From positions 30,551 to 94,550 of the forward strand of contig CAZNGF010000002.1 of assembly GCA_964572855.1 (NCBI GenBank): DNA of 64,000 nt, read 5' to 3'. Shown here piece after piece: positions 3,902 to 20,050 of the stretch (its first letter is position 1; each line of letters starts with the position of its first letter). The DNA comes from an uncultured Thermotogae bacterium. Lineage in GTDB: Bacteria > Bipolaricaulota > Bipolaricaulia > RBG-16-55-9 > JAJCYT01. Below the pieces are notes generated by a model. It worked only from the letters and a program-made list of their open reading frames with translations. It ran no database searches and was not told the DNA's origin. Both the position numbers and the translations under genes were made by a program.

Positions 3902-6820
3902 ATGCTGCGTCACCGTGACAAGGGGGGATCGGGAGTCGTGCGCACAAGCGTTTATCGTTTCGCGGGGGTGTCGCTTGCCGCCGTGCTAGTACTGACGGCG
4001 TGGGGGCAGCCTGCCGTTGGCGCCGACGCCCAAGTCTCGCTCGTCGCGCTCAACCGCACGGTGCGGGCCGACCCCGGCGCCTTCGTGACCCTGACCTTCC
4101 AGCTTCGGAACGAGGGCGATGCGGCCGTCGAGGTCCAACTGACCGCCGATATGCCGCCCGGATTGTCGCTCTTGGGTGGGCTCCCCGCGGTCATGCTCGC
4201 GGGCGCCTCGATCGAAAGCCTGTTCGTCACCGTCATCGTGAGCCGGGAAACCGAGGCGGGGCCGGCCATCGTTGCCTTGACTGCACGCATCGCGGGGGGA
4301 ATGGCGCGCGCCGAGGCGACCGTCGACGTCGAGCGCGTGGCCGGCCTTAGCTTGCGCCCTCCCCCGGATGGCTCGGCCGAGCCCGGCCAGTCCATCACGC
4401 TCGAATTCGGCGTAACCAACGACGGCAACGGCCCCGACCGGGTCGCCTTGGACGTGGACGCCCCGGCGGCGGTACAGGTCGCACCGACAAGCGCCTCGCT
4501 TACGCTGCTCGCGGGCGAAACCCGCCGGCTTGCGGTCACGCTGACCGTGCCGGCCGAAACCGACCTGCCGCGGGTTCGCGTCACGCTCGTGGCCAGCTCC
4601 ACCAGTTTCCCGACCGTGAGCGCTCGGGCAACGACCACGCTCGACGTGCTCCCTCCGCTGCCCGAGGCCGTGGGCGGGCGCCTCGTGCTCGAGGTGCCCA
4701 GCACCTTCGCGCTGGGGCCGACCGTCCTCCCCAACCGCGACGTCCCGCTGGTGCTCACGGCCAGTGTGGCGGGCGCGGCCGACTTCGACGACGGGGACCG
4801 CATCGACTATCGCCTCGCGCTCGACAACCTGGCCGTGCGCGACCTGCGTTTCGAACTGCGCCGCGGCGCGGTCGAGACCCGACTGGGTCGGCTCGCTGTG
4901 ACCTGGACCGAACTGATCGATCAAGCCGGAGACGGTGCTCAGCTCACGCTCGAGGGCCTGCCGTTGCAGGGGGCCGTGAGCCTGGCTGCGCTGCTCGACG
5001 GGCTCTGGCCCCGCGTGGGGACCCAACTCGGCGCGGATGTGGTCGGTATGCGACTCCAACTCAGCCAGCTCGCCCGCTTCGACCCCGAAGGGCGGGTCTG
5101 GCTCGGGTCGCTCTCGCTTACGCAATCCGTGGGCGAGGCGATTCGGTTAGGCAGCGAATGGGCACTCAGCCAAGCCGATACCGGGGAACGGGTTTGGGGC
5201 AACGTGATCCGTTTCGACTGGGAGGGGGACGACTTCCGCGTCGACGGCGAGTGGATCCGAACCGACGCGGCTTTCCTCGGCGACCGGCCCGGCCGGCGCG
5301 GGTTCCGGCTCGCCCAAGCGCTCGAGCACGACGATGTGGCCGTGCAGCTCGCCTACAGCCGCGTTCTCGATCAGGGGAACGTCTCAGGGACGGGCGCCCT
5401 GCTCGAAACCGCCTGGCGCTCGTCCCTGCGCTGGACGCCCTCGAGCCCGTGGCCTTCGTGGGTCGCACGCCTGGACTTCGACGGGGCGCACGCCCCCCCC
5501 AACCTGGGACAGTCAAGCCGCCTGCTGGCCAGCCTGGGGATGCGCCAGGAGATCGCTCCCCTCTCCCTCGGTGCCACTGCCAGCCGGCTGTCGTCGGTGG
5601 ACGCCACGGGCGCGCACGACGACTTGACGCTTCGCGCCGAGGCGGCGGTGGACCTGGCGCCGGCCCGTCTACTCCTGCGGGCCGGACAGACGCTTGCCGT
5701 CTCCCCGCTGCACGTCGCCCCGTCCCCCGCCGGCACCGAGCTGCTGGCCGCCCTGCAGCTCACCGGGGCGCTCGGGCGGGGGGCACTCTCCCTCCTGCTG
5801 TTGGGTGACGTGGTCACGGTCGACGCCGTGCTCGACTTACAAACGGGCCCCCTGCGCGCCGCAGCCGAGTTGGAACTCGAGCTCGACGCCGCCGGCCTGC
5901 TGAGCGCCGAGGCGCGCGCGGAACTCTCCGTGGCCTTCAACGCGCCGGTCGCCTTCATCCCGGTGGGCGGTCGGGTGACAGGGGTCGCCTTCGAGGACGC
6001 CAACCAGAACGGCCTCCGCGACTCCGACGAGGCTGGCATCGCCGACCTCGTGTTCCGCGTCGGCGACGCACGCGTCCGCACCGATGCGGAGGGACGCTAC
6101 CGCACGCCGCCGCTCTCCCCCGGGGCCTACGAGATCCGTCTAAACGCGCTCCCGCTCGAACTCGTCGCCGGACCCGTTCCCGGAACAGTCACCGTGAGCG
6201 CGGGGGAAACGAAACGGGCCGACCTGCCGCTCAACCGCGTGGGCGTCGTGCGCGGCGTCGTCTTTGACGACCGCGATCAAGACGGCATTCGGGACGCCGA
6301 CGAAGCCGGGCTGGAAAACGCGGTCGTGGACCTGCGTGGCGCGGGCCGCACCGCCCCCGGACGCACGGATGACCAAGGCCGCTTCAGCTTCAGCGGACTG
6401 GCCCCGGGGTCCTATCGCCTGACCCTCGATGTCTCCGCGCTCCCGCCCCGCAGCGAGCTCACCACCCCCGACACGATCGCGTTCACGCTTTCGCCGGGCC
6501 AAACCGTGGAAGCGGCCTTTGGCGCCTACCAAAGGCCGCGGGCCATCCGTTTCGTCCCGACCGCCACCTTCACCGTCTCTCCCGAGCTCCCGCAAGCGGG
6601 GGAACCCGTTACCTTTAACGGAAGCAACTCCTTCGATCCCGACGGGCGCGTCGTCGGCCACGCGTGGGATCTGGATGGAGACGGTCAAGCCGACGCGGAA
6701 GGCGCAACGGTCACGCGGACCTATGACCTGCCAGGCACCGTCCGCGTGACGCTCACCGTCCGCGACGACCAGGGGAACACGGACAGCTTAAGCCAAGACG
6801 TCGTGATCGCCGCGCCCTAG
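3902..6820 (+). CDS. Large secreted surface/adhesin-like protein carrying CARDB-like, Cna-B/SdrD-B-type (carboxypeptidase-regulatory-like) and C-terminal PKD domains.
   Basis: A signal peptide (…VYRFAGVSLAAVLVLTAWGQPAVGADA) is followed by repeated ~100-aa beta-sandwich modules with NDG/NEG motifs (CARDB-like). Two tandem repeats are of SdrD-B / Cna-B type: GRVTGVAFEDANQNGLRDSDEAGIADLVFRV…DAEGRYR and GVVRGVVFDDRDQDGIRDADEAGLENAVVDL…DDQGRFSF. The C-terminus (FNGSNSFDPDGRVVGHAWDLDGDGQ…VTLTVRDDQGNTD) is PKD-like. The start could be ATG 3902 or GTG 3938; the track start at 3734 runs through an R/P-rich, non-protein-like N-terminus. Confidence 0.7.
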   Translation: MLRHRDKGGSGVVRTSVYRFAGVSLAAVLVLTAWGQPAVGADAQVSLVALNRTVRADPGAFVTLTFQLRNEGDAAVEVQLTADMPPGLSLLGGLPAVMLAGASIESLFVTVIVSRETEAGPAIVALTARIAGGMARAEATVDVERVAGLSLRPPPDGSAEPGQSITLEFGVTNDGNGPDRVALDVDAPAAVQVAPTSASLTLLAGETRRLAVTLTVPAETDLPRVRVTLVASSTSFPTVSARATTTLDVLPPLPEAVGGRLVLEVPSTFALGPTVLPNRDVPLVLTASVAGAADFDDGDRIDYRLALDNLAVRDLRFELRRGAVETRLGRLAVTWTELIDQAGDGAQLTLEGLPLQGAVSLAALLDGLWPRVGTQLGADVVGMRLQLSQLARFDPEGRVWLGSLSLTQSVGEAIRLGSEWALSQADTGERVWGNVIRFDWEGDDFRVDGEWIRTDAAFLGDRPGRRGFRLAQALEHDDVAVQLAYSRVLDQGNVSGTGALLETAWRSSLRWTPSSPWPSWVARLDFDGAHAPPNLGQSSRLLASLGMRQEIAPLSLGATASRLSSVDATGAHDDLTLRAEAAVDLAPARLLLRAGQTLAVSPLHVAPSPAGTELLAALQLTGALGRGALSLLLLGDVVTVDAVLDLQTGPLRAAAELELELDAAGLLSAEARAELSVAFNAPVAFIPVGGRVTGVAFEDANQNGLRDSDEAGIADLVFRVGDARVRTDAEGRYRTPPLSPGAYEIRLNALPLELVAGPVPGTVTVSAGETKRADLPLNRVGVVRGVVFDDRDQDGIRDADEAGLENAVVDLRGAGRTAPGRTDDQGRFSFSGLAPGSYRLTLDVSALPPRSELTTPDTIAFTLSPGQTVEAAFGAYQRPRAIRFVPTATFTVSPELPQAGEPVTFNGSNSFDPDGRVVGHAWDLDGDGQADAEGATVTRTYDLPGTVRVTLTVRDDQGNTDSLSQDVVIAAP

Positions 6821-6848
6821 CTGCTTCCATCCCATCGCGCATATATGC

Positions 6849-6876
6849 GTCTAGAATGGTTGCCATTAGGTATACT
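6849..6876 (+). promoter_or_regulatory. Copy 1 of a promoter-like motif GTCTA-N15-GGTATACT, resembling a sigma-B-type -35/-10 pair.
   Basis: GTCTA at 6849-6853 and GGTATACT at 6869-6876. The same bipartite motif recurs at 8700-8728 and 9075-9102. It is followed by a strong SD (AAAGGAGGTG) and an ATG at 6905. Confidence 0.3.
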
Positions 6877-7121
6877 TGGAAAACGTTGAAAGGAGGTGTG
6901 ACCCATGCAGCGCCGCGTCGGACGCACGCAATCGCAGCGCGAGACAGCCCAAACGGCCCGTCTCCGTCGTGAGGTGTCCGTCGCGCGCAGCGGTGTCACG
7001 CCACCACAACCGCAAGAAACCTTGCACGTGGTCGCTAAGCGCCAGTTGGGGCTCATCGATCCGATGAGCGTGGTCTTATGTGGTTACGCGGGTCAAACCG
7101 ATCGTTTCTTCATGGAAGCAT

Positions 7122-7180
7122 CTACAAGGGCAAACCAAGCGAAAGCCTGGGGCGCAAAGCTACGGCCTTCTAGGTCCGCA
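7122..7180 (+). promoter_or_regulatory. Possible degenerate or partial upstream c-di-GMP-I (GEMM)-like aptamer, i.e. the 5' half of a tandem arrangement.
   Basis: The sequence aagGGCAAACCaagcGAAAGcctggGGCGCAAAGCtacgg closely matches the GEMM 5' half: GGCAAACC, then a P2 hairpin with a GAAA tetraloop, then GACGCAAAGCC. No convincing 3' half (ACAGCCGGG…ACCG) follows before the next aptamer begins. Confidence 0.3.
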
Positions 7181-7252
7181 CGAACAAGGCAAACCCGCCG
7201 CGAGGCGGCGACGCAAAGCCACGGGTCTCTTGCAGACAGCCGGGCTACCGTA
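7178..7252 (+). promoter_or_regulatory. c-di-GMP-I (GEMM) riboswitch-like aptamer in the 5' leader of the downstream secreted pilin-like gene.
   Basis: The sequence acaaGGCAAACCcgccGCGAggcgGCGACGCAAAGCCacgggtctcttgcagACAGCCGGGCTACCG carries the hallmark GEMM-I blocks. These are GGCAAACC, a P2 hairpin with a GNRA tetraloop, GACGCAAAGCC, and a P3 with a conserved 3' ACAGCCGGG(Y)UACCG. A near-identical arrangement is found at 9150-9222. Downstream, CCTAATG…CATTAGGAGG could form a hairpin that sequesters the RBS. Confidence 0.55.
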
Positions 7253-7307
7253 GCGTACCTAATGGTGGCAGAGCCGCTAGATGCGACATCATTAGGAGGT
7301 GCTTTTT

Positions 7308-7745
7308 ATGAAGAAAGTAAGCATGTTGTTTGCGACGTTTGCGGTGTTGGGCATGGTGACAATGGCCGTTTGGGCCGGCAACAGCGACAAGGCGCAGGTT
7401 GGCTTCTCGTTGGAGCAGTACTTTTCACTGGAAGTCAAAAACGGCGCCAACGTCGAGTTCGGCACGCTGGACGCCCTGGCCGGGCCGTTCGAGAAGAAAA
7501 ACGGTTCCGCGCTCAAGGTCGACAGCAACACGAGCTGGAGCATCAGCACCAGCAAAGCGGTGCTGACGAGCCCCAACGGCGCCAACGCCGACACCGTACT
7601 CAACGCCCTGGCCGTCTCGCTCGAAACCGAGAGCGGGATAGGCAAAGACGCGGACATCAAGGTGGATTACGCCTTGGACAACCTCGAGGACCTGCCCACG
7701 GGTGACTATGTCGTCGAGGTGACGTTTACGGGTAGCACCAAGTAA
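7308..7745 (+). CDS. Small secreted protein (145 aa), paralog of the 9233..9748 product. Putative donor-strand pilin-like subunit (SCPU/CsuA/B-like).
   Basis: RBS AGGAGGTG precedes ATG 7308, and the signal peptide is MKKVSMLFATFAVLGMVTMAVWA. The mature N-terminus has an alternating-hydrophobic strand (QVGFSLEQYFSLEV). The C-terminus, …KVDYALDNLEDLPTGDYVVEVTFTGSTK, resembles the G-x-Y-x-D-T-L-x-V-T-V-x-F ending of SCPU/Csu pilins. It is clearly homologous to the second paralog (SNTSWSIS…/SNAPWVVN…; VDYALD…GDYVVEV / VDYRVR…GDYALDL). Confidence 0.6.
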   Translation: MKKVSMLFATFAVLGMVTMAVWAGNSDKAQVGFSLEQYFSLEVKNGANVEFGTLDALAGPFEKKNGSALKVDSNTSWSISTSKAVLTSPNGANADTVLNALAVSLETESGIGKDADIKVDYALDNLEDLPTGDYVVEVTFTGSTK

Positions 7746-7789
7746 CCCACATAAGGCTGCCACATAGGACCACTGCTGCAAGCAAGCAC

Positions 7790-7819
7790 GCGGGGGCGGG
7801 TCAAGCGACCTGCCCCCGC
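7790..7819 (+). terminator. GC-rich hairpin, candidate intrinsic terminator after the pilin-like gene.
   Basis: GCGGGGGCGGGTC-aagc-GACCTGCCCCCGC forms a 13-bp stem with one G·U pair. It lies 45 nt after the stop at 7745. The 3' U-tract is weak (ctcattg). Confidence 0.4.
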
Positions 7820-7923
7820 CTCATTGTCCCCGACCGCCCAAGGTCATCGTCGTTACAGGGGGGCCTGCGTGGGTACGCTAGAATTGGGTACAATCTCCGT
7901 ATCCACCCCGCTCCCGGAGGCTT

Positions 7924-8697
7924 TTGGCGATGGATTCAGAACAACTTCTTGCGCAACTGGCTCGGCTGCACGCCCAAGCCGCGCCGCAGGATCAAATCCT
8001 CAAGCTCAAGGAGGAGCTCGTTGAGGCCAACGTCGGCCTCGTGACCTCGATAGCCAAGCGCTTCGTCCACTCCGGCGAACCCTTAGAGGATCTCGTTCAG
8101 GCCGGCTACATCGGCCTCCTCAACGCCGTCCACAACTTCGACCTCAACCGCGGCACCAAGTTCTCGACTTACGCCACTTACCTCATCCAGGGCGAAATCC
8201 GGCACCACATCCGCGACAAGAACACCACCATCCGCCTGCCGCAGTGGCTTCAAAAGCTGAGCCAACAGGTCAAGCGCGCCGAGGAGCGTTTCTATCAGGA
8301 ACACGGACGCCTGCCCACCATCGCCCAGCTTTCCGACGCCCTCAACATCGAGGAGGACGGCATTCGAGAAGCCCTCAAGGCCCGCGAAGCGCTTCATTAC
8401 GTCTCCATCGATGCCGAGCGTCGAGAAGAGGATCCCCGTCCCCTCGCCTTCGACCCGAGCAAGATCCGCAGCAAACACCCGGACGAGTTCCCGATCGAGT
8501 ACAGGATTAAGATCGCCTCCGCCATCGAGACGCTCACCGACCTGCAACAGCGCGTCATCAACGACCTCTTCTACGCCGGCAAATCCCAAGCCCAGGTGGG
8601 CCAGGAGGTCGGTTACTCCCAGCGCCACATCTCCCGCATCAAGCAAGAGGTCCTCGATGCCATCAGGGGAGAATTCGACGAGCAGGACCCCGAATAA
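7924..8697 (+). CDS. RNA polymerase sigma factor, sigma-70 family group 3 (SigB/SigF/SigG-like).
   Basis: 257 aa. Region 2 (DLVQAGYIGLLNAVHNFDLNRGTKFSTYATYLIQGEIRHHIRDK) and region 4 HTH (QRVINDLFYAGKSQAQVGQEVGYSQRHISRIKQEVLDAIRGEF) are recognisable, with no region 1.1. A GGAGG RBS lies 10 nt upstream of the ATG. A TACAAT -10-like hexamer is at 7889-7894. Confidence 0.85.
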   Translation: MAMDSEQLLAQLARLHAQAAPQDQILKLKEELVEANVGLVTSIAKRFVHSGEPLEDLVQAGYIGLLNAVHNFDLNRGTKFSTYATYLIQGEIRHHIRDKNTTIRLPQWLQKLSQQVKRAEERFYQEHGRLPTIAQLSDALNIEEDGIREALKAREALHYVSIDAERREEDPRPLAFDPSKIRSKHPDEFPIEYRIKIASAIETLTDLQQRVINDLFYAGKSQAQVGQEVGYSQRHISRIKQEVLDAIRGEFDEQDPE

Positions 8698-8699
8698 GG

Positions 8700-8728
8700 T
8701 CTACGCGCCCGCGCTTCTAGGTATACTC
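8700..8728 (+). promoter_or_regulatory. Copy 2 of the GTCTA-N16-GGTATACT promoter-like motif.
   Basis: GTCTA at 8700-8704 and GGTATACT at 8721-8728. It lies 36 nt upstream of ATG 8764. Confidence 0.35.
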
Positions 8729-8763
8729 CCAAGCAACGATGGGACGCGGACGGAAGGACGCCC

Positions 8764-9057
8764 ATGAGTGATACCGCCAACGCGGACGATCGGGGGGAGT
8801 TCCTCGTGACACTGCTCAGCGACGTCAACAGCGCCATTAGCGAACTGGTCGACCTCAGCGTCGCCTGGTCGAACGGCGACTTCCCGCGCGCCCACGCCAA
8901 GTGCGACTTGGTTTTCGCGCGACTCGAGCGCGCCGCCGCGGCCGCCCAGGGAGAAGCAACCCGTTCGGCGCGTGCCCAACGTTACCTCCACCAGCTGGAC
9001 GACGTTCGCGACCAACTGACCCCGCTGCGCCCCATCCTCGCCAACCGCATCGGTTAA
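8764..9057 (+). CDS. Hypothetical protein (97 aa), acidic N-terminus, no recognisable domain.
   Basis: ORF directly downstream of the sigma factor gene and behind motif copy 2. The composition is protein-like (MSDTANADDRGEFLVTLLSDVNSAISELVDLS…). No signal peptide. Confidence 0.45.
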   Translation: MSDTANADDRGEFLVTLLSDVNSAISELVDLSVAWSNGDFPRAHAKCDLVFARLERAAAAAQGEATRSARAQRYLHQLDDVRDQLTPLRPILANRIG

Positions 9058-9074
9058 GCCTTCATCCCGTGAAT

Positions 9075-9102
9075 GTCTAACTCGGCCGCTTCCAGGTATA
9101 AT
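9075..9102 (+). promoter_or_regulatory. Copy 3 of the GTCTA-N15-GGTATAAT promoter-like motif, directly upstream of the second riboswitch leader.
   Basis: GTCTA at 9075-9079 and GGTATAAT at 9095-9102. The predicted TSS lies ~9108-9110 at the conserved leader element TTACCGCGGTCAAA, which is also present at 7084-7098. Confidence 0.4.
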
Positions 9103-9149
9103 CATTACCGCGGTCAAATGCCGCCGTGAAGAAGCCACAGCTTCACATC

Positions 9150-9222
9150 GCGAAAAAGGTAAACCCGCCGCGAGACGGGGACACAAAGCCACGGGTCTCT
9201 AGAAGACAGCCGGGCCGCCGAA
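9150..9222 (+). promoter_or_regulatory. c-di-GMP-I (GEMM) riboswitch-like aptamer, second copy.
   Basis: The sequence aaaaaGGTAAACCcgccGCGAgacgggGACACAAAGCCacgggtctctagaagACAGCCGGGCCGCCG has the same block order as the 7178-7252 copy. Differences sit at loop or compensatory positions (loop cttgc vs ctagaag). The aptamer ends 11 nt before ATG 9233 and directly abuts the RBS (GAAGGGGTGAAGC-ATG), which is consistent with translational control. Confidence 0.55.
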
Positions 9223-9232
9223 GGGGTGAAGC

Positions 9233-9748
9233 ATGAGACACGCAAACCTTAGCTTGCTCGCGCTTGGCGCGCTGCTCGTTTTCGTCGGCGGCTTTTGGGC
9301 CGATGGTGCAACCCAGACCGAGGTCGTTTTTCACCTCGCGCCGTTTCAAACCCTCTCGCTGGCGGACGGACCCTTCGGTGCGCGCACCGCTTACAGCGTG
9401 CACATCCCACAGCCCAGCGCGCGCGAACTCGCCCGCGGTCACGTCGACGTTCCGGGGGCGGTCACCCTCAACGTCCACAGCAACGCCCCGTGGGTCGTCA
9501 ACGTCCGCGCCCTCAGTCCGGACATGGGCCACAGCGACGACGGCGCCGTCACCAAGCCACTCGCCGACTTTCAACTCCGCGCCGCAAATCGCCCCTACAT
9601 CACACTCGATACCCAAGACCAACGACTCATCCAGGGAGACCACGGACGCTTCTCCTTCGAGGTGGACTACCGCGTCCGCTTCGACCCACGCACCCATCGC
9701 GACGGCGACTATGCGCTCGACCTCCTCTACACCATCACCAGTCGCTGA
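9233..9748 (+). CDS. Small secreted protein (171 aa), paralog of 7308..7745. Putative SCPU/Csu-like donor-strand pilin subunit.
   Basis: Signal peptide MRHANLSLLALGALLVFVGGFWA. Homologous blocks to paralog 1 are present, including the C-terminal …FEVDYRVRFDPRTHRDGDYALDLLYTITSR. The gene is preceded by riboswitch copy 2. Confidence 0.6.
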   Translation: MRHANLSLLALGALLVFVGGFWADGATQTEVVFHLAPFQTLSLADGPFGARTAYSVHIPQPSARELARGHVDVPGAVTLNVHSNAPWVVNVRALSPDMGHSDDGAVTKPLADFQLRAANRPYITLDTQDQRLIQGDHGRFSFEVDYRVRFDPRTHRDGDYALDLLYTITSR

Positions 9749-9802
9749 CCTATGTGGACGTGCGTCCTTGCCGCTGCGCTCAGTTCCCGCCAAACTGACC
9801 TC

Positions 9803-10840
9803 ATGAAGCCGCCCATCTACCTACTCATCGCCGCAGTGGTCCTGATTGTTGTCGCCCCGCCGGCCCAGGCGCTTCGCCTCTCCCGAATCGAGTTCGACCT
9901 CTCCCTCCCGCCCGGCGCGCGGGAAACCTTTTCCTTCCACGTTTTCAACGACGAGGCGGAGGAAACCACCGTTTCGCTCTCGCTGGCCGACTGGGATCGA
10001 ACGCTCGACGGCGAGAATCGTTTCTTCGAGCCCGGCACCAACGCGCGCTCGGCCAGCGATTGGATCACCTTCGCCCCCAACCAGTTCACCCTCGCGCCCG
10101 ACGAAACCGCCGAGGTCCGCTTCACCCTCAACGTCCCCCCCGACGTCCGCGGCACCCACTGGGCAGCCCTCTTGGTCGAAGGCTCGCCGCGCGAGGTCGA
10201 CACCCAGGGCGGGACCACCATCCTCGTTCGCCGCCGTTTCGCCGTCAAGATCCTGCAAACCCCTCCCGACACCGGGGCGCAGGACATACGGCTCCTCGGG
10301 CTCGACGTCGCGGGCCTTAACCCCCTTACCGTTCACCTTCGCGTCCGCAACGCCGGCACGCGCAACCTCGCCGCCGTCAAGGGCCGCCTCGAGCTGCGCG
10401 ACCAAACCGGCACGCTCGAATCCGTCCCCATCGAGGACTTTCCCATGCTTCCCGGCGCCGAGCGGCGCGTCACCGTCGCCAGCAAACGCTTCCGCAACGA
10501 GCCCTTCCCCGCCGGCCGCTTCCTCGTCCTCGCCATCCTAGATTTCGGCGGGGACGACCTGCTCGGCGGCCAGCTCAACCTCAACGTCCCAGCTATCCAG
10601 CTCGCCCCCCTGGAGCCTCAATTGTCACTGCCTCAGGACCTCGACCGGGACGGTCTGTTCGAGGATGTCAACGGAGACGGCCAACTGACCGACGACGACC
10701 CCGTCCTCCTCGGCTTCCACTTGGACAATCCGGCCGTCCTCGACAACCATCGCCTCTTCGATTACGACAACGACGGCGACGTGGACTTCGACGACGTGCT
10801 CGCCCTCCGCGCCCGCGTCGAAACCCAATCCGACGCCTAA
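9803..10840 (+). CDS. Secreted protein with an N-terminal fimbrial-chaperone-like (PapD-like Ig-fold?) region and a C-terminal dockerin-type Ca-binding repeat pair.
   Basis: The preferred start is ATG 9803, which gives the signal peptide MKPPIYLLIAAVVLIVVAPPAQA. An alternative ATG at 9752 lies 3 nt after the pilin stop. The N-terminal segment RIEFDLSLPPGARETFSFHVFNDEAEETTVSLSLADW resembles the chaperone N-domain pattern. The C-terminus DVNGDGQLTDDDPVLL…DYDNDGDVDFDDVLAL is a dockerin / EF-hand-like duplicated D-x-N/D-x-D-G motif. Confidence 0.5.
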   Translation: MKPPIYLLIAAVVLIVVAPPAQALRLSRIEFDLSLPPGARETFSFHVFNDEAEETTVSLSLADWDRTLDGENRFFEPGTNARSASDWITFAPNQFTLAPDETAEVRFTLNVPPDVRGTHWAALLVEGSPREVDTQGGTTILVRRRFAVKILQTPPDTGAQDIRLLGLDVAGLNPLTVHLRVRNAGTRNLAAVKGRLELRDQTGTLESVPIEDFPMLPGAERRVTVASKRFRNEPFPAGRFLVLAILDFGGDDLLGGQLNLNVPAIQLAPLEPQLSLPQDLDRDGLFEDVNGDGQLTDDDPVLLGFHLDNPAVLDNHRLFDYDNDGDVDFDDVLALRARVETQSDA

Positions 10841-10949
10841 GCCCTCCAGCTGTCCGCTAGACGAATGCCCGCCGCCTGACGGACTTGCGTCCCTGTGCTC
10901 CCGACTCCCCCGCGTTACATTGCACACAACATTGGGAAGGAGGACAATC

Positions 10950-11495
10950 ATGCGAAAGGTGTATTCCTGTTTAGCCCTGCTATTGCTTGCCGTTTCCCTC
11001 GTCTCAGCAGTCCCCACAGACGCCTATGCCCGCGACGGTGCGGCCGGCGGCGTCTTCTTCGATCCGGCCGGTGGTCTCTCCGACGGCGGCGTGCTCCCCA
11101 TGACCCGTCTAGTACTCGGCAGCGGCTTCACCGTTGCTCATCTCGACATCCTCTTCGGCATCTCCACCGCGTCCATCCCCAACCCGGGCGTTCGCTTCCT
11201 CCCGTATTGGGTCTTGAACTTCCCGCTCAAGTTCAGCTCCCTGGCCGTTCTCACACCATACTTTGGGGTCTCCCCGGTCCTCTTCACCACCAGCGCACTC
11301 GCCGTGCCGCCTGCCGCCGACTGGATCTTCAAGTTCGGCACCACCTTTACCTTCGGCGGTTTTGGCTTTTTCGCAGAAACCGGCTTCTTCGTCCCCTTGG
11401 CCTCGTTCCCGGCCTTCGCCGTAGGCTTCAGTGTCGATTTCGAATCCATGGATTCCCTCTTTTGCGACACGTGCATCGACGAATCCGTCTACTGA
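10950..11495 (+). CDS. Hypothetical secreted protein (181 aa), Gly/Phe-rich beta-rich C-terminal half.
   Basis: RBS GGAAGGAGG precedes the ATG. Signal peptide MRKVYSCLALLLLAVSLVSAVPTDAYA. No recognisable domain. It is the last gene of the accessory cluster. Confidence 0.5.
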   Translation: MRKVYSCLALLLLAVSLVSAVPTDAYARDGAAGGVFFDPAGGLSDGGVLPMTRLVLGSGFTVAHLDILFGISTASIPNPGVRFLPYWVLNFPLKFSSLAVLTPYFGVSPVLFTTSALAVPPAADWIFKFGTTFTFGGFGFFAETGFFVPLASFPAFAVGFSVDFESMDSLFCDTCIDESVY

Positions 11496-11620
11496 GTTCC
11501 GCCCGTACCGCAGAGCTTGCCGGCGCCGCCCGCAGCCGCAACCTCCCCTTGGGCAAGCTCCCCCAACGCGCCCGCTCGCCCCGTTTGCCGTCGCCATCGG
11601 GTCCGCCTACAATCCACGCC

Positions 11621-12646
11621 ATGGCCAATCGCAAATCCCACACCCCCGACCTCTCAACCGAACAGCGACGCTCGCTCCACCGTTGGATGCGCCTCGGCCG
11701 CCTCCTAGACGAACGCCTCCTCAAGCTCCAGCGCCAGGGCCGGATCGCCTTCTACGGCACTGCAACCGGCGAAGAAGCCGCCGTCGCCGGCAGCGCCTTC
11801 GCCCTCTCCCCAGATGACTGGATCTTCCCCGCACTTCGCCAAGGCCTCGCCGCCCTCATGCGCGGCATGCCTCTCGACGCGTACATCGCCCAGTGCATCG
11901 GAAACGCAAAGGACGTGGCGAAAGGACGCCAGATGCCCGTCCACTACGCCTATCGGGCCGCCAATTTCGTCTCCTGGAGTAGCTGCATCGCCACCCAGCT
12001 TCCCCATGCCGTCGGCATGGCTTATGCCGCCCGTCTCAAAAGACACGAACGCGTCGCACTCGCTTACCTCGGTGACGGTGCCACCTCCGAGGGCGACTTT
12101 CACGTCGCCATGAATTTCGCCGGCGTCTATCGCCTTCCCGTCGTCTTCTTCTGCCAGAACAACCAATGGGCCATCTCCGTCCCAATCGAACGCCAAACCG
12201 CCTCCGCCAACATAGCAGCCAAGGCGGCCGCCTACGGCTTTCACGGCACCCGAATCGACGGGAACGACGTGCTGGAAGTCTATCGAGCCACCCGAAAAGC
12301 CGTACTCAAGGCACGGGCCGGCCAAGGCCCCACCCTCATCGAGGCCGTCACCTACCGCGTCGGCAGCCATTCCTCCTCTGACGATCCCACCCGCTACCGC
12401 GACCCCGCCGAACACGAAGCCAGGAGCGCCAAGGACCCGATTTCAGCATATCGCGAAAAACTCATCGCCGACGCCATCTGGGATCCCGATCGCGAGCTAC
12501 AGCTCACCCAGGCCCTGGACCAACAAATCACCCGCGCCATCCGAGCGGCCGAAAACGCACCCTCCCTGCCACCACACACCCTCTTCACCGACGTCTTCGC
12601 CCAACCTCCCGCCTCGCTGACCAAACAGCAAAGCCAACGCACCTAA
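11621..12646 (+). CDS. Thiamine-diphosphate-dependent 2-oxoacid dehydrogenase E1 component, alpha subunit (PdhA / BkdA-like).
   Basis: TPP-binding motif region (…YLGDGATSEGDFHVAMNFAGVYRLPVVFFCQNNQWAISVP…), 341 aa. A TACAAT hexamer sits ~10 nt upstream of the ATG. The track ORF 10895..12646 carries a spurious R-rich N-terminal extension. No E1-beta, E2 or E3 gene follows. Confidence 0.8.
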   Translation: MANRKSHTPDLSTEQRRSLHRWMRLGRLLDERLLKLQRQGRIAFYGTATGEEAAVAGSAFALSPDDWIFPALRQGLAALMRGMPLDAYIAQCIGNAKDVAKGRQMPVHYAYRAANFVSWSSCIATQLPHAVGMAYAARLKRHERVALAYLGDGATSEGDFHVAMNFAGVYRLPVVFFCQNNQWAISVPIERQTASANIAAKAAAYGFHGTRIDGNDVLEVYRATRKAVLKARAGQGPTLIEAVTYRVGSHSSSDDPTRYRDPAEHEARSAKDPISAYREKLIADAIWDPDRELQLTQALDQQITRAIRAAENAPSLPPHTLFTDVFAQPPASLTKQQSQRT

Positions 12647-12708
12647 ACCCCTTGCTTTTCCCCTATCCCGCTCGTTAACCTAGGCCAAACAACTACCTGG
12701 AGGCACAC

Positions 12709-13203
12709 ATGCGCCCCACATTCATTGCAATCCTAGCCTCGGTCACCCTCAGCCTCGCCGCACCCCACGCTCAAGCCCAGTCGGTGTCTATCCTTCAACC
12801 CCTCCAAGACGCAACCGTCTGGGGCAGTCAGGTCACGGTACGTTGGACCTCCGACGACGCCGAGAACGCCGCCGAAACCACACAAACCCACTATCACCTC
12901 TTCCTGACAAAGGGCATCCAAACCGAACTGAACCTTCAACCCGACGAACCCATCGGCTCCGAAGCCATCCACACCACAGAAGAATCGCACACCTACACGG
13001 ACCTCTCCGCAGGCACATACACCTTTCACGTGGCCCTAGCCGACGAAAACCACGTTCCCCTCGAACCAAACGCCATCGCGACCGTCCAATTCAAAGTCCG
13101 CACCCCGGACGAACGTCCCACCGCAGACCTCCCCAACTGGCTCATCGTAACCGGCGTGGGCGTACTCCTCTTGGGAGCGGTCCTACTCACGCGTACCTTT
13201 TAA
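12709..13203 (+). CDS. Hypothetical exported protein with an Ig-like/beta-sandwich feel and a C-terminal membrane anchor.
   Basis: Signal peptide MRPTFIAILASVTLSLAAPHAQA and a C-terminal hydrophobic segment LIVTGVGVLLLGAVLL. No family recognised. Confidence 0.5.
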   Translation: MRPTFIAILASVTLSLAAPHAQAQSVSILQPLQDATVWGSQVTVRWTSDDAENAAETTQTHYHLFLTKGIQTELNLQPDEPIGSEAIHTTEESHTYTDLSAGTYTFHVALADENHVPLEPNAIATVQFKVRTPDERPTADLPNWLIVTGVGVLLLGAVLLTRTF

Positions 13204-13371
13204 GGCAAATTCGCATACAGGGGGGCGGGGAAGGGAGGCATGAACCCAAAACAAAAACATGCCTCCCTTCCCCGCCTCCCGAATACCCATCGCACACTGC
13301 CGACCAAGCTTCGTTTGACACGGGACGACACCGACCATACCCTATGCTCACTCCACCCAAGGAATGAAACC

Positions 13372-14316
13372 GTGGATAAACCAATCCTTATCTCCGGCAA
13401 CGCAAATCCCGAACTCGCTTCCGAAATCGCAACGCACCTCGAACTTCCCCTCTGCAACGCAAGCATCCGCCGTTTCGAGGATGGAGAAATCAGCCTCTAC
13501 ATCAGCGAAACAGTCAGGGGGCATAACGTCTACGTCCTTCAACCCACCTGCCCCCCCGTCAACGACAACCTCATGGAACTCCTGCTCATCATCGATGCCC
13601 TCCGCCGCGCATCCGCTCGCCAAGTCACGGCCGTCATTCCCTACTTCGGATATGCAAGGCAAGACAGAAAACACATCGGAAGGGTTCCAATCAGCGCCAA
13701 ACTCGTCGCAAACTTGATCACAACGGCCGGCGCCCACCGCGTCCTCACCCTTGACCTTCACGCAGGCCAAATCCAGGGATTCTTCAACATCCCGGTTGAC
13801 AACTTGCGACCCGACTACATCCTCGCCAATCATTTCCGCGACCTTCAAAGCGACCCGAACACCGTCATCGCCACCCCCGACATCGGCGGCGTCAAACGAG
13901 CCCGACAGCTAGCCGAACGCCTCAACCTCTCCCTCATCATCGTCGAGAAAAGACGCCTCTGGCAACAAGAACAAACCGAGGTCATGAACGTCATCGGCGA
14001 CGTCGGCGGCAAAAAGGTCCTCCTCGTGGACGACATCCTCGCCTCGGGTGGCACCATCGTCAACGCCACCAAGGCCCTCCTCGCCAGCGGAGCACGCGAG
14101 ATCTGGGCCGCCTGCACCCACGCCGTCTTCTCTTCAGGCGCCCTTCAAAAGCTCAACGACTCCCCTCTCAAACGCCTCGTCGTCACCAATTCCATTCCCG
14201 CCCGGCACGACGAAACACCCCTCGTCCAGCGCATCTCCATCGGCAAGCTGTTCGCCGAAACCATCAAACGGATCGACCATGGCGAGTCCGTCAGCAAGCT
14301 CTTCCCGCACGACTAA
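13372..14316 (+). CDS. prs: Ribose-phosphate pyrophosphokinase (PRPP synthetase).
   Basis: Canonical Prs motifs are present: RRFEDGEISLYISETVRGHNVYVLQ, the PRPP-binding loop VLLVDDILASGGTI, and DLHAGQIQGFF. GTG start at 13372 (VDKPILISGNANPELA…). Confidence 0.85.
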   Translation: MDKPILISGNANPELASEIATHLELPLCNASIRRFEDGEISLYISETVRGHNVYVLQPTCPPVNDNLMELLLIIDALRRASARQVTAVIPYFGYARQDRKHIGRVPISAKLVANLITTAGAHRVLTLDLHAGQIQGFFNIPVDNLRPDYILANHFRDLQSDPNTVIATPDIGGVKRARQLAERLNLSLIIVEKRRLWQQEQTEVMNVIGDVGGKKVLLVDDILASGGTIVNATKALLASGAREIWAACTHAVFSSGALQKLNDSPLKRLVVTNSIPARHDETPLVQRISIGKLFAETIKRIDHGESVSKLFPHD

Positions 14317-14463
14317 CCCCCTCGGCTTGACGTTCACTGATCCTTTCCGGTATACAAGATCAAAAAGGGCAAGCCAACTGCCATTCAACACCGCCCAAAA
14401 CCCACCGAGGAGGTGAGCGCTTCGCACTTCCAATCGTCTGCCCAACACATCAAGGAGGTTGCC

Positions 14464-15531
14464 ATGACACAAAGAAATTCGTTCGTCGCGGCATTGTCAC
14501 TACTGGCCGTTCTCGCCTTCGCCGCACCGACAACCGCCGAAACCCTGAGCGTCTGCCCATCCGGTTGCAGCTTCAATTCGCTCCAATCGGCCGTCGCCAA
14601 CGCCTCAAAGGGCGACGTCATTGCCCTCGGCGCCGGCACCTTCATCGGCCCCGTCCGCATAGACAAATCACTCACCATCAAGGGACAAGGCGCTTCCTCC
14701 ACCATCGTCGGCGGCGGCCTCATCGTCGGCGGCGTCAACCTCGACGTCCGCATCGAATCCGTGACACTCACCCGTGGGCTAAACGGGCTCGCCGTCCTTG
14801 GTATCTCCAATGTCGTCGTCCAGGACGTCACCATCGCCGAGAACATCGCCGACGGCGTCCTCGTCACCGACCGCTCGCTCGCCACCCTCTACAATGTCGA
14901 CGTCGTCCGCAACGGTTCGGTCCTCGCTGGCAATCCCGTCGGGGCCGGCCTCTCCGCCAACGGCGCCGGCCGCATCGTCACCTCCGACGTCACCATCGCC
15001 GAAAACGTCAGCGCGGGGGTGGCCGCCTTCGGCCAGTCCAACGTCCAGCTCGGTACCCTGACCCAGGTGCTACGCAACGGCACCGCCCAAGGCATCGTCC
15101 CCGGTTTCGGCGGCGAGGGCATCGTCTTCGGCGGAACCTCCACCGGTACCGTGGACGCCGTCCTCGTCCAGGCCAACGGCGCCGCGGGCATCGCCGTGCG
15201 GGAGTCCGCCAACGTCACCATCCGCAACACCCAGGTACTGCAGAACGCGGGCGTTGGCATCCAAATTGGCGGTCCTGTCTCCAGCAATCCCGACGTCGAA
15301 CTCACCGCAACCGCCAAGGTCGAAAACACCAAGGTTGCCCAAAACGGTTCCCACGGCATCCTCCTCGGCGACCTCGCCAAGGTGCTCGAATCCGCTATCG
15401 CTACCCTCCTTGGCAACGGCATCACCGACAACGGCGCCTGCGGGATCGCCCTGGAAAGCCACGCGGCCGACGCCACCATGGAAAACAATTTCCTCTCGGG
15501 CAATCCCGGGGGATCGGTCTGCCAACTCTAA
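14464..15531 (+). CDS. Secreted right-handed parallel beta-helix repeat protein (NosD / pectin-lyase-fold-like).
   Basis: RBS AAGGAGG, signal peptide MTQRNSFVAALSLLAVLAFAAPTTA. This is followed by SLQSAVANASKGDVIALGAGTFIGPVRIDKSLTIKGQG and many ~22-aa repeats with conserved N/G/V positions, typical of PbH1 repeats. Confidence 0.65.
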   Translation: MTQRNSFVAALSLLAVLAFAAPTTAETLSVCPSGCSFNSLQSAVANASKGDVIALGAGTFIGPVRIDKSLTIKGQGASSTIVGGGLIVGGVNLDVRIESVTLTRGLNGLAVLGISNVVVQDVTIAENIADGVLVTDRSLATLYNVDVVRNGSVLAGNPVGAGLSANGAGRIVTSDVTIAENVSAGVAAFGQSNVQLGTLTQVLRNGTAQGIVPGFGGEGIVFGGTSTGTVDAVLVQANGAAGIAVRESANVTIRNTQVLQNAGVGIQIGGPVSSNPDVELTATAKVENTKVAQNGSHGILLGDLAKVLESAIATLLGNGITDNGACGIALESHAADATMENNFLSGNPGGSVCQL

Positions 15532-15545
15532 TCAAGGAGGTTCCC

Positions 15546-16859
15546 ATGACTCATACCAAACACGCGCTTAATCGTCGTCAGTTCATCAAAACGCTGGGCG
15601 CCGGGGCCGCAGCCCTCTCCCTCTCCGGCCAACTCGGACCTTGGGTCCACGGGCAGCAGCCGTTCGTCATCGGCATGGCCAATCCCCTCTCCACCTTCTT
15701 CGGCCAAGCCGCCGAAAAAGCGCTCCGCCTGCGAATTCAGCAGATCAACGCCGACGGCGGCCTCATGGGCCGCCCCCTCTCTCTGGCGGTCTCCGACAGC
15801 GCCGGCCGACCCGACCAGGCGCTGCGCGCCGTCCAGGATCTCGTCCTCTCGCAGGGCGCCAACGTCCTCACCGGCTTCTTCTTCAGTGAAGAGCTCCTGG
15901 GTGCCCTGCCCTCGCTCCCGGCCTTCAAGAAAATCCTGCTCGGCACCGGCGCCTCCACGCCCATCGCCACCATACAGGTCCAGCAGGATTACGACAGCTT
16001 CAAGTACTTCTTCCGCGTCGGCCCGACCAACTCCTTCTTCATCCTCCAGTCCCTCGCGCAATTCGCGCGCGGCTACGTTGAAGGCGTCCTTAAATGGTCG
16101 AGCATCGTCGTCCTCGCCGAGGATGCCGCCTGGACACAGGCTGTCACCGACAGCCTCCCGACCCTGCTCCAGGCCTTTGGCTCATCACTCCAAATCGCCG
16201 ACACCATTCGCTACGCCGAGGACACCACCGACTTCAGCTCCATCTTCCAGCGCGCCGAGGACACGGGCGCCGACGGCATCGTCACCGTCATGGCCCACAC
16301 CGGCCTGCGTCCCACCACGCAGTGGGCTCAGGGCGAGGTGCCCATGCCCATGGTCGGCATCAACGTACAGGCCCAGGACGGTCGCTTCGACGACCTCAGC
16401 GGGGGCAACGCCGAATCCGTCGTTACCTTCACCTCCGGCGCCAAAGCGCCCATCACCCCCAAGACCGTCCCCTTCGTCGACGCTTTCTCGTCCTTTACGG
16501 ACTTCCTGCCCGACGTGACCATCCCGTCCTACAACGCCTTCGCTTCCACCGACGCCATCGACGTGCTCCTCGACAGCGTCGAGCGCGCCGGCGTGCTGCC
16601 CGACACCGACGCCAATACGGACAAGGTCATCGAGGCCATGGAAGGGACCGACATCGTCGGGACCCAGGGCAACGTCTCGTTCTACCAGGTGGGCGAAACC
16701 GGGGTCTCGCCCGTCCGCCCGGACCTCGCCTTCCCCCACGACATCCGCTTCGAGTCCGCACAGGGGGTTTGGGTCCAGTGGCAAAGCGGCGCGCTCGAGG
16801 TCCTGTTCCCTCTGGAACTGGCCTCGTCCGAATTCGTGCTTCCGCCCTGGTTGCGCTAG
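15546..16859 (+). CDS. ABC transporter substrate-binding protein, type-I periplasmic binding fold (LivJ/LivK / branched-chain amino acid family), with a Tat-type signal.
   Basis: RBS AAGGAGG. The Tat-like signal is NRRQFIKTLGAGAAALSLSG, and a Leu/Ile/Val-binding-protein-like fold follows. The permease genes livH and livM come next. The track ORF 14565..16859 is a frame run-through. Confidence 0.7.
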   Translation: MTHTKHALNRRQFIKTLGAGAAALSLSGQLGPWVHGQQPFVIGMANPLSTFFGQAAEKALRLRIQQINADGGLMGRPLSLAVSDSAGRPDQALRAVQDLVLSQGANVLTGFFFSEELLGALPSLPAFKKILLGTGASTPIATIQVQQDYDSFKYFFRVGPTNSFFILQSLAQFARGYVEGVLKWSSIVVLAEDAAWTQAVTDSLPTLLQAFGSSLQIADTIRYAEDTTDFSSIFQRAEDTGADGIVTVMAHTGLRPTTQWAQGEVPMPMVGINVQAQDGRFDDLSGGNAESVVTFTSGAKAPITPKTVPFVDAFSSFTDFLPDVTIPSYNAFASTDAIDVLLDSVERAGVLPDTDANTDKVIEAMEGTDIVGTQGNVSFYQVGETGVSPVRPDLAFPHDIRFESAQGVWVQWQSGALEVLFPLELASSEFVLPPWLR

Positions 16860-16946
16860 ACAAAGGCGTGACCACCACAACCGACACCGATCATACGTGC
16901 CGGGAAGGCCTGCTCCCGTGGGCCTTCCCGGTCTTCTAGGAGAACC

Positions 16947-17807
16947 ATGGGTGCAGCGCTCGACATCCTCGTCCTCGGCTTCCTGATCAGCTCCCTCTAC
17001 GCACTGGCCGCCGTCGGTTTCACCATGATCTTCGGCGTCGCCGGCGTCCTCAATCTTGCCCACGGCGCCTTCGTCATGGTCGGCGCCTACTTGGCCATCT
17101 GGGCCAGCTCCTTCATGAACTGGAACATCTATGCCGCTACCCTCATCGCCGTCGCCGGCATGGCCGTCATCGCACCTATCGTCTACATCGTCTTTGTCCG
17201 TCCCATCATCCATCGGCCCGTCACGGTCTTTCTGGCCACCCTCCTGCTCGCCTTCATCATCGAGCAGGGTATGATCCTTTTGTTCTCCGTCAGCCCACGC
17301 ACGCTCACCCCGCTGGTCTCCGGTGGCTTCTCCCTGCTCGGTATCAACATCACTTGGAATCGCTTGATCGCCAGCGTCGTCGCGCTCGTCTCCATCGCCG
17401 CCCTCTGGCTTTTCGTCACCCGCACGCGCACGGGCAAGGCCATCTCCGCCCTCTCCATGGAACGGGTCGGCGCCGCGCTCGTCGGGATCAACGAGTACCG
17501 CATCCAGTTGATCGTCTGGGGGCTATCCGGCGCGCTTTCCGCCGTCGCCGGCGTCTTCCTCACCTCCTTCCTCGGCATGAGCCCCTTCGGCGGCAGGGTC
17601 CCACTGGTCGTCTCTTTCTCCATCGTCGTCCTCGGCGGCCTCGGAAGCATCCCGGGCTCGCTTTGGGCCGCCTACATCATCGGCTACGCCGAAACGATCA
17701 CCACCCAGTTCCTCCCCGAAGCGCGTGGCCTGCCCTCGCTAATCATCCTGCTCGCCATCCTCGCGCTGCGCCCTCAAGGCCTCTTTGGAAGGGGGGCCGA
17801 GGCATGA
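16947..17807 (+). CDS. livH: Branched-chain amino acid ABC transporter permease (LivH family).
   Basis: 286 aa, ~8 TM segments, typical LivH N-terminus MGAALDILVLGFLISSLYALAAVGFTMIFGVAGVLNLAHGA. Confidence 0.8.
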   Translation: MGAALDILVLGFLISSLYALAAVGFTMIFGVAGVLNLAHGAFVMVGAYLAIWASSFMNWNIYAATLIAVAGMAVIAPIVYIVFVRPIIHRPVTVFLATLLLAFIIEQGMILLFSVSPRTLTPLVSGGFSLLGINITWNRLIASVVALVSIAALWLFVTRTRTGKAISALSMERVGAALVGINEYRIQLIVWGLSGALSAVAGVFLTSFLGMSPFGGRVPLVVSFSIVVLGGLGSIPGSLWAAYIIGYAETITTQFLPEARGLPSLIILLAILALRPQGLFGRGAEA

Positions 17808-18811: not shown

Positions 18812-18815
18812 ACCC

Positions 18816-19799: not shown

Positions 19800-20050
19800 C
19801 GCTAAAACGTCATTCCCGTTTCACAAGCAGATCCCTGCGCGAGTTAAACGTAGAGGCGAGCAGCCCGCGCACGAAAGGCGCGTAGCGGGATGACAAGCGA
19901 GAGCGAACAAGGGCTGGGGTAAAGGGCGGGACGCGTCAGGCCTCGTCGTAGGGCAGGCTGCTCGAAGCGCACCGTCGGGATGGAGGCGCGCCCTTCCATG
20001 TAGGGCTTTGCCACGCGGTCCATCACGCGCCCTGGGGAAAGGAAAAGTAC

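Follow-up and report, generated by a model that had tools for sequence, protein, structure and literature searches.

A chaperone-like protein with a dockerin-like tail, encoded beside subunit-like genes and linked to an usher-like barrel gene in Bipolaricaulota

The DNA analysed here is a stretch of 64,000 nucleotides (the window) from an uncultured bacterium assigned to the Bipolaricaulota, covering positions 30,551 to 94,550 of contig CAZNGF010000002.1 (assembly GCA_964572855.1). On its forward strand, at 9803-10840, it carries a gene, referred to below as the target gene, whose product combines a Sec signal peptide, two beta-sandwich domains with a chaperone-like fold and a C-terminal module resembling a type I dockerin. 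The target gene is genetically linked to genes for small subunit-like proteins (the pil family) and to a gene for a large protein with an usher-like beta-barrel, and the proteins of all three kinds carry signal peptides. The target gene and its parts are as follows.

9803-10840, + strand: target gene; signal peptide, two beta-sandwich domains and a dockerin-like tail (AlphaFold2 model with a mean predicted local distance difference test score, pLDDT, of 90.5)
9803-9871, + strand: Sec signal peptide, residues 1-23, MKPPIYLLIAAVVLIVVAPPAQA and then L; read from the sequence, with a helix at residues 5-17 in the AlphaFold2 model
9872-10258, + strand: domain 1, residues ~24-152; beta-sandwich resembling PapD-N and WxLIP-PGBD, with a conserved DWDR..DGENRF motif
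10184-10258, + strand: F-G hairpin and last strand of domain 1, residues 128-152, SPREVDTQGGTTILVRRRFAVKILQ; candidate donor strand, with strands at 130-133, 139-142 and 145-152 in the AlphaFold2 model
10280-10597, + strand: domain 2, residues ~160-265; second immunoglobulin (Ig)-like domain, with GLNPL, FP.LPG and LDFGG conserved
10628-10822, + strand: type-I-dockerin-like module, residues ~276-340; two 12-residue Ca loops, an upstream DLDRDG loop, and helices at 298-305, 310-319 and 329-344

The open reading frame (ORF) runs from 9752 to 10840 on the + strand (362 codons plus stop) and opens at an ATG at 9752. The ATG at 9803 (MKPPIYLL...) is most likely the start of the gene, giving a product of 345 amino acids, because a public gene call with 100% identity to that product (P0001, 345 amino acids) begins at MKPPIYLL and all 17 homologues align from the same point. 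The preceding gene, pilB (9233-9748), ends 4 nt before the ORF and 55 nt before the preferred start. The signal peptide, read directly from the sequence, has a lysine, a hydrophobic core and a cleavage site between AQA and L, and no lipobox cysteine was found in it on reading the sequence. The G+C content of the window is 60-72%, and long chance ORFs are therefore common; that the target is one of them was ruled out by its conservation, with 17 homologues in the database (41-60% identity), 55 invariant columns in their alignment with the target, and 38 target loci in species-representative genomes. A scan of 6700-11700 for promoters and terminators gave background level only. The original prediction, made from the letters of the window, had placed a secreted protein at 9752-10840, directly after the second pilin-like gene. 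The ORF is real and its translation holds both peptides quoted there, and the secretion and the position are borne out by the signal peptide and by the 4-nt gap to pilB.

The AlphaFold2 model, built from the 17-sequence alignment, has a signal helix at residues 5-17, a first beta domain at ~30-152, a second at ~162-262 and a helical tail at 298-344. When the model was compared with the PDB by Foldseek, WxLIP of Enterococcus came first (9i1y, 9i25; E 8e-14), followed by the chaperones CfaA, Caf1M, CsuC, FimC and PapD (E 4e-10 to 1e-8); the chaperone matches have target-normalised TM-scores of 0.5-0.6. Structural comparison gave scores of 12.9 for CfaA (184 residues), 12.6 for EfmWxLIP1 (166 residues), 12.3 for SafB (177 residues), 11.9 for FimC (171 residues), 11.7 for CsuC (181 residues) and 10.6 for PapD (138 residues). 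Single PapD-like, MSP and ASH domains were also among the structural matches. In these comparisons, the two Ig-like domains are arranged as in PapD-like chaperones, and form a tandem like the PGBD and HBD of WxLIP.

At the level of sequence, a profile of the two domains was built from 23 diverse orthologues of the target and run against the whole PDB sequence set. EfmWxLIP1 was the sole match (E 0.008), in an alignment extending across both domains. Pfam and NCBIfam gave nothing above threshold for the target, the weak matches being to fn3_5 and WxLIP_PGBD only (E ~1e-3). Taken member by member, 8 of the 23 orthologues have a sub-threshold WxLIP_PGBD match (19-20 bits against a gathering cut-off of 27.3) and one of the 23 has a sub-threshold PapD_N match (4.8e-4), while the protein of the window matches neither PapD_N nor PapD_C; no WxLIP_HBD match was listed in the Pfam scans of the target and the 23 members. 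Domain 1 of the family also has weak Ig-like matches to fn3_5, NEW3 and FixG_C. Comparison of the target family with FimC, YadV, SfmC and YraI by hhalign was non-significant (P 0.09). By structure and by sequence, the nearest known relative of the target is thus WxLIP, with a homology that is marginal. The original prediction had seen the strand pattern of a periplasmic fimbrial chaperone N-domain in the first part of the protein. This is upheld as regards the fold, since the model does resemble the PapD-like and Ig-fold chaperones; the nearest solved relative is WxLIP and not PapD, both in Foldseek and in the profile search.

WxLIP proteins (DUF916/PF06030 and DUF3324/PF11797 followed by a transmembrane helix; 9i1y, 9i25) are encoded in WxL/Csc clusters of Enterococcus, Lactiplantibacillus and Listeria. 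The target is of the same size, with a signal peptide and tandem Ig domains, and shares with them an 'FDL' motif in the first strand and the F-G hairpin. Both are encoded beside small and long proteins that have one beta-rich domain in common. In contrast, the target has a dockerin-like module in place of the C-terminal transmembrane helix of WxLIP, its host is a diderm outside the Firmicutes, and its Pfam score is 20 bits where the gathering cut-off is 27.3. Its partners are not recognisable WxL domains, the likeness being at motif level only, and its cluster adds an usher-like outer-membrane barrel.

With the PapD-like chaperones (PapD, FimC, Caf1M, CfaA, CsuC; PF00345 and PF02753), which are likewise exported by Sec, the target superposes over 138-184 residues. 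It has in common with them a last strand of domain 1 with alternating hydrophobic residues and a lysine conserved among the close homologues, and a gene located between subunit genes and a large barrel gene. It differs in having no significant sequence similarity to them, in Ig domains that are ~50 residues longer, and in the extra dockerin, which is present in no described chaperone of the chaperone-usher pathway.

The tail contains two loops, DVNGDGQLTDDD and DYDNDGDVDFDD, which are canonical 12-residue D-x-[ND]-x-D-G loops. A module of ~65 residues is present in 40 of 40 orthologues, with the consensus PQDLDGDGFYEDVNGDG...D..LL......VQ.N.RAFDFNNDG.VD..DV..L. PF00404 (Dockerin_1) is matched by 24 of the 25 orthologues tested, the best at 8.9e-12; the window copy is the one that falls below the threshold, and matches EF-hand_1 only (1.1e-3). 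The best PDB match of the tail family profile is the type I dockerin of Clostridium thermocellum CelS, across both repeats (E 2.4e-6, and E 2.7e-8 in another search). The helices of the tail are modelled at pLDDT >90, and the C-terminus is acidic without a hydrophobic segment. The target tail thus has the duplicated 12-residue Ca loop followed by a helix that is characteristic of type I dockerins (PF00404), and aligns with CelS from end to end, but the family has an extra upstream DLDGDG loop and the module is carried on a chaperone-like body, not on an enzyme. The pair of residues at loop positions 10-11, which is presumably the cohesin-recognition pair of C. thermocellum type I dockerins and Ser-Thr in those proteins, is DD and FD in the target. 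A duplicated Ca-binding dockerin motif and an unusual fusion were both part of the original prediction; the motif is confirmed by the two loops, by the CelS match and by the helical model of the repeats, and the fusion is indeed unusual, in that the literature searched contained no account of a chaperone-fold protein with a dockerin.

In the window and flanking sequences (~550 kb), the dockerin-like module was seen only on the target family and on one further secreted protein. The latter is encoded between the target and barrel genes at three loci (L010:9026-10189, L011:5994-7517 and L019:9089-10474) and ends in the same module; L035:7646-8122 matches it in part. It has two copies of an N-terminal domain of ~130 residues without an assigned family; the L011 and L019 proteins have a PKD or cadherin-like domain as well. 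The idea that these N-terminal domains are cohesins was unsupported, as Pfam gave no cohesin match.

The subunit-like proteins of the window are encoded by two genes.

7308-7745, + strand: pilA, 145 amino acids; second subunit-like protein and a distant paralogue of pilB, ending in ...GDYVVEVTFTGSTK
9233-9748, + strand: pilB, 171 amino acids, secreted; signal peptide, N-terminal strand-Pro-strand and SNAPWVVNV motif, ending in ...GDYALDLLYTITSR

PilA and PilB are 21% identical and colinear from end to end. The family has signal peptides and an N-terminal strand-Pro-strand, and 51 of 63 members have the motif S-N-x-P-W-x-L, which is W-x-L-like. The C-terminus is of fixed length: at least 48 of the 63 stop exactly two residues past G-x-Y-x-h-x-h-x-[YF]-T-h-x. 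In this it recalls chaperone-usher pilins, whose C-termini are anchored through the carboxylate, as well as WxL domains with their C-terminal motif. Pfam gave no match for the family (WxL in 0 of 20 members at E up to 1), the family profile did not pick up the long WxL protein in 9i25 even when E values up to 10 were allowed, and comparison of the family with E. coli K-12 pilins by hhalign was non-significant. Among PDB sequences, the profile matched only the TLP-1 fibrils (TLP-1a/b), at a non-significant E of 0.17-0.34. These are environmental donor-strand-exchange fibrils (9ikj, 9ikk; CryoSeek, PMC11494351), in which the N-terminal strand is the donor strand (PMC11494351). The match, which is not significant and no more than a lead, is colinear over the N-terminal strand-Pro-strand and S-x-V-x-W-x-L; TLP-1 exceeds the subunits in length by ~90 residues and seems to come from Flavobacteriales.

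At loci L020-L030 (e.g. L022:5777-6814, L026:6785-7840), a third pil gene encodes a two-domain protein, with an N-terminal domain of ~150 residues without an assigned family and a C-terminal pil domain. The shared domain is thus C-terminal, an arrangement that resembles those of tip adhesins and 'long WxL' proteins. An Arg-rich ORF of 266 residues (6905-7705), which lies over pilA in another frame, has no public gene call and looks like a chance product of the high G+C content.

The large protein of the window is encoded upstream of pilA.

3938-6820 (alternative start 3902), + strand: usher-like protein, 960 amino acids; signal peptide, two NEW3/CARDB-like Ig domains, barrel, two SdrD-B-like domains and PKD
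4685-5995, + strand: central beta-barrel region, residues 250-686; ~24-27 long antiparallel amphipathic strands, mostly with 2-residue turns

A word-indexed homologue search with the large protein gave one full-length relative only, and none for the central region; an exhaustive search of representative genomes yielded an alignment of 31 orthologous sequences. The central ~430 residues have ~26 amphipathic period-2 segments and no transmembrane helix. No Pfam family was found in this region in any of the 31 orthologues, and there was no match among PDB sequences. The AlphaFold2 model built on this alignment (mean pLDDT 88.3), which starts with a signal helix, was compared with known structures, the best scores (with residues and deviation in brackets) being 19.1 for the PapC pore, 2vqi (326; 3.8), 19.1 for full-length FimD, 6e14 (391; 8.4), 18.8 for the FimD pore, 3ohn (332; 3.9), 17.0 for FhuA (326; 6.8) and 16.2 for maltoporin (251; 5.1). 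On these structural matches, the large protein is modelled as an outer-membrane-type barrel, for which ushers are the best, though not an overwhelming, match. As in the ushers PapC and FimD (PF00577), the barrel is flanked by N- and C-terminal beta-sandwich domains and, in the common gene order, its gene follows that of a chaperone-like protein. There is no sequence similarity to ushers, however (hhalign of the barrel family against four E. coli ushers was non-significant), and the flanking domains are NEW3/CARDB, SdrD-B and PKD in place of the usher NTD, CTD1 and CTD2. No inserted plug domain was seen in the window copy when it was aligned with its orthologues. The orthologues at L005, L006 and L010 have two beta-rich insertions of ~70-95 residues in the barrel region (alignment columns ~300-370 and 520-600), which could be plug-like domains.

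Maps made with tblastn and hidden Markov models reveal a conserved order in ~22 of 40 loci: one to three small pil genes, the target gene and the barrel gene (product ~960-1170 residues), often tightly packed. In the window this order is rearranged, to large protein, pilA, sigma factor, 97-residue protein, pilB and target, and the module is flanked by housekeeping genes. Metagenome-assembled genomes are the source of all 38 target loci. Their labels are Bipolaricaulota, Acetothermia or Fraserbacteria, with some 'uncultured Thermotogae' and one Atribacteria; the last two labels probably reflect loose labelling or mis-binning. On this distribution too, the window almost certainly belongs to a Bipolaricaulota genome. 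The system has so far been found only in Bipolaricaulota (Acetothermia) and Fraserbacteria.

Two further genes lie within the module of the window.

7930-8697, + strand: SigB/F/G-type (SigF-type) sigma factor; a sigma gene is adjacent in 6 loci
8764-9057, + strand: 97-residue cytoplasmic protein after the sigma gene, conserved in L002 (29% identity, E 1e-12)

The same pair, a sigma gene (67% identical product) and the small-protein gene, is found in L002 between the pil gene and the target gene. The sigma factor may be a dedicated regulator of the module. In L001/L002 (1-5400), from a marine relative with a 3.2-Mb contig, a microcompartment locus is located directly upstream of the pil-sigma-target module, and encodes bacterial microcompartment (BMC) shell proteins, EutN, an aldehyde dehydrogenase and DeoC/RpiB. 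The target-pil pair of L041 is flanked by GGDEF/EAL, HAMP-GGDEF and NosD beta-helix proteins, with no barrel gene. In L033:13256-14743 and L041:13210-14754 (also in L034 and L036-L038), an S8 subtilisin is encoded ~4-5 kb downstream of the target gene, with an Ig domain at its N-terminus that is similar to domain 2 of the target (E 1e-16 to 4e-21). ORFs in L033-L041 that had the appearance of a second target were considered as paralogues of the system, and rejected, since they encode S8 subtilases in which a single Ig domain resembles domain 2.

Just downstream of the target gene in the window, 10950-11495 encodes a secreted protein of 181 residues, rich in Phe, Gly and Ala, for which there is neither a Pfam family nor a counterpart at the other loci, and which may be located in a membrane or form a small beta-barrel. 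Further on, 12709-13203 encodes a secreted protein of 164 residues with a sub-threshold DUF4399 match and, at its hydrophobic C-terminus, a weak match to a LAVTG sortase-signal model (E 0.03). GC skew is strongly negative in 8001-20000 (-0.17 to -0.31); it is ~0 to -0.07 in 1-8 kb, 20-26 kb and 42-64 kb, and -0.09 to -0.16 in 26-42 kb.

Residues 128-152 of the target are of particular relevance to its possible function. The region has alternating hydrophobic residues (I140, V142, F146, V148 and I150, in the pattern I-x-V-x-R-x-F-x-V-x-I) and, in R145 and K149, two basic positions that do not vary among the 17 close homologues and are mostly K or R in distant ones. In the profile alignment it corresponds to the hairpin of WxLIP, which is predicted by AlphaFold to turn into a strand that completes the WxL beta-sandwich (PMC10599100); the PDB entry for a complex of WxLIP with a long WxL protein is 9i25. 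In the non-significant hhalign comparison, it is aligned with RIKLFYRP, the chaperone motif that includes the lysine by which subunits are anchored. These correspondences, drawn from alignments, fit donor-strand complementation without proving it.

Taken together, the genes probably, if by no means certainly, encode a divergent surface-assembly system resembling the chaperone-usher pathway, with the target as its chaperone or adaptor. Bipolaricaulota are Gram-negative-staining diderms with a toga-like outer membrane, and Sec would export the target to the periplasm of such a cell. There, its two Ig-like domains, set as in PapD and WxLIP, would bind PilA (7308-7745) and PilB (9233-9748). Residues 128-152 would insert into the incomplete beta-sandwich of the subunit, in donor-strand complementation, and the basic residues R145 and K149 would hold its fixed-length C-terminus. 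The double Ca2+ loop of the dockerin-like module would then dock the loaded chaperone, the likeliest partner being the periplasmic Ig-like domains of the barrel protein (3938-6820). It would act as a Ca2+-dependent handle which, in some genomes, would bring a second protein to the common partner as well. The subunits would subsequently cross the barrel and be displayed or polymerised, the barrel serving as export and assembly platform. What the analysis shows directly is the chaperone-like fold, the dockerin-like sequence, a barrel with ushers as its best structural match, the gene linkage and the signal peptides; the periplasmic location, the complementation, the C-terminal anchoring, the docking partner and the formation of a fibre are inferred. 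The original prediction had also suggested a tether of the pilin-like proteins to another surface component such as the large protein; that the dockerin would hold them, or the target itself, in this way is plausible.

Several observations weigh against this assignment. None of the components has significant similarity to the classical chaperone-usher families: Pfam and NCBIfam were negative (PapD_N/C, usher, fimbrial), and hhalign comparisons with the ushers, chaperones and pilins of E. coli K-12 gave P ~0.1-0.16. Because the latter were non-significant, the system is not placed as a sequence member of those families. Its simultaneous likeness to the chaperone-usher pathway and to the WxL/WxLIP cluster is structural; on sequence grounds it belongs to neither. 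R145 and K149 lose their strict invariance in the most distant homologues, and their placement in a subunit-binding cleft is putative, as is the number of strands in the barrel. The SdrD-B and PKD domains at the C-terminus of the large protein are typical of extracellular proteins; instead of an assembly pore, it could be an adhesin that anchors itself. Among the window-locus proteins scanned and the accessory proteins encoded at L010, L011 and L019, Pfam identified no cohesin. Finally, the L033-L041 clade and L002 have no barrel gene within ~8 kb but keep the dockerin, and its partner may therefore be something other than the barrel.

The retention of the dockerin at those loci, where no barrel gene is nearby (L002, L033-L041), would also suit the main rival explanation, in which the target is a static adaptor of the WxLIP type. 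Such a protein would stay bound to the small WxL-like proteins and anchor them permanently to an envelope layer (peptidoglycan, S-layer or toga), with no fibre being formed and the dockerin replacing the transmembrane helix of WxLIP. WxLIP is the closest solved relative by structure and by sequence, and the size and layout are those of WxLIP (337-365 residues, signal peptide, two Ig domains and a C-terminal anchor). The combination of small subunits with a long two-domain subunit that has the shared domain at its C-terminus is as in WxL clusters, and the W-x-L-like motif (51/63) and C-terminal Y-T-L motif of the pil family are consistent with the same idea. It is, however, at odds with the diderm host, with the failure of Pfam WxL to match any pil protein (0/20) and of the pil profile to pick up the long WxL protein in 9i25 (E up to 10), and with the barrel protein, which is co-conserved here in most loci and absent from the WxL clusters of Firmicutes. 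We regard a static anchor as rather unlikely, but as an explanation to be taken seriously.

Two other explanations assign the protein a different role altogether. The barrel could be a channel in a nutrient-uptake or porin complex, with the small proteins as substrate binders and the target as a tether in the periplasm or at the surface. In its favour is a proposal that the toga is a scaffold for uptake systems, but neither sequence nor model suggests the plug of a TonB receptor (no specific check for one was made), and the chaperone fold, the fixed C-termini of the subunits and the adhesin-like two-domain subunit are better suited to assembly; we consider this very unlikely. Also very unlikely is that the target is a stand-alone secreted Ig adhesin, or a carbohydrate-binding accessory of a cellulosome-like complex whose cohesin scaffold is encoded elsewhere in the genome, with no functional tie to the neighbouring genes. 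The tail does match cellulosomal type I dockerins best, domain 1 has its weak fn3_5, NEW3 and FixG_C matches, and three loci encode another dockerin-bearing multi-domain protein. Against this, no cohesin, glycoside hydrolase or carbohydrate-binding module was found at the locus, the flanking genes are housekeeping genes, and the two-domain superposition on chaperones is specific. Synteny with pil and barrel genes is, moreover, kept across ~41-60% sequence divergence.

A wider and more speculative reading can also be considered, which we put forward tentatively and regard as rather unlikely. Archaic chaperone-usher systems have been reported from Proteobacteria, Cyanobacteria and Deinococcota, but not from Bipolaricaulota. 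No recognisable pilus, fimbria or adhesin genes were reported in the first closed Acetothermia genome (PMC6092417), while the first Bipolaricaulota isolate has a few pili at the ends of the toga (bioRxiv 10.1101/2025.11.21.689855). The operon might represent an unrecognised, deep-branching lineage of the chaperone-usher type, a diderm counterpart (possibly ancestor-like) of the WxL/WxLIP clusters, that builds these unassigned toga-pole pili. In this scenario, loss of the outer membrane and of the usher would have left Firmicutes with the chaperone-like WxLIP and the subunits. Bipolaricaulota would have kept the barrel, with Ca2+-dependent docking of dockerin to Ig domains in place of the recognition between chaperone and usher N-terminal domain.

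The operon is a concrete candidate for the pili seen on the first cultured Bipolaricaulota. If confirmed, chaperone-usher assembly would extend to a deep-branching, toga-bearing diderm lineage, through parts that standard profiles miss, and a dockerin built into the chaperone itself would be a novel means of delivering loaded chaperones to a pore. That WxLIP is the closest relative of the chaperone-like protein offers a testable evolutionary link between WxL clusters and chaperone-usher systems, with a bearing on the diderm-to-monoderm transition. The profiles of the target, the subunits and the barrel could be used for the annotation of metagenomes.

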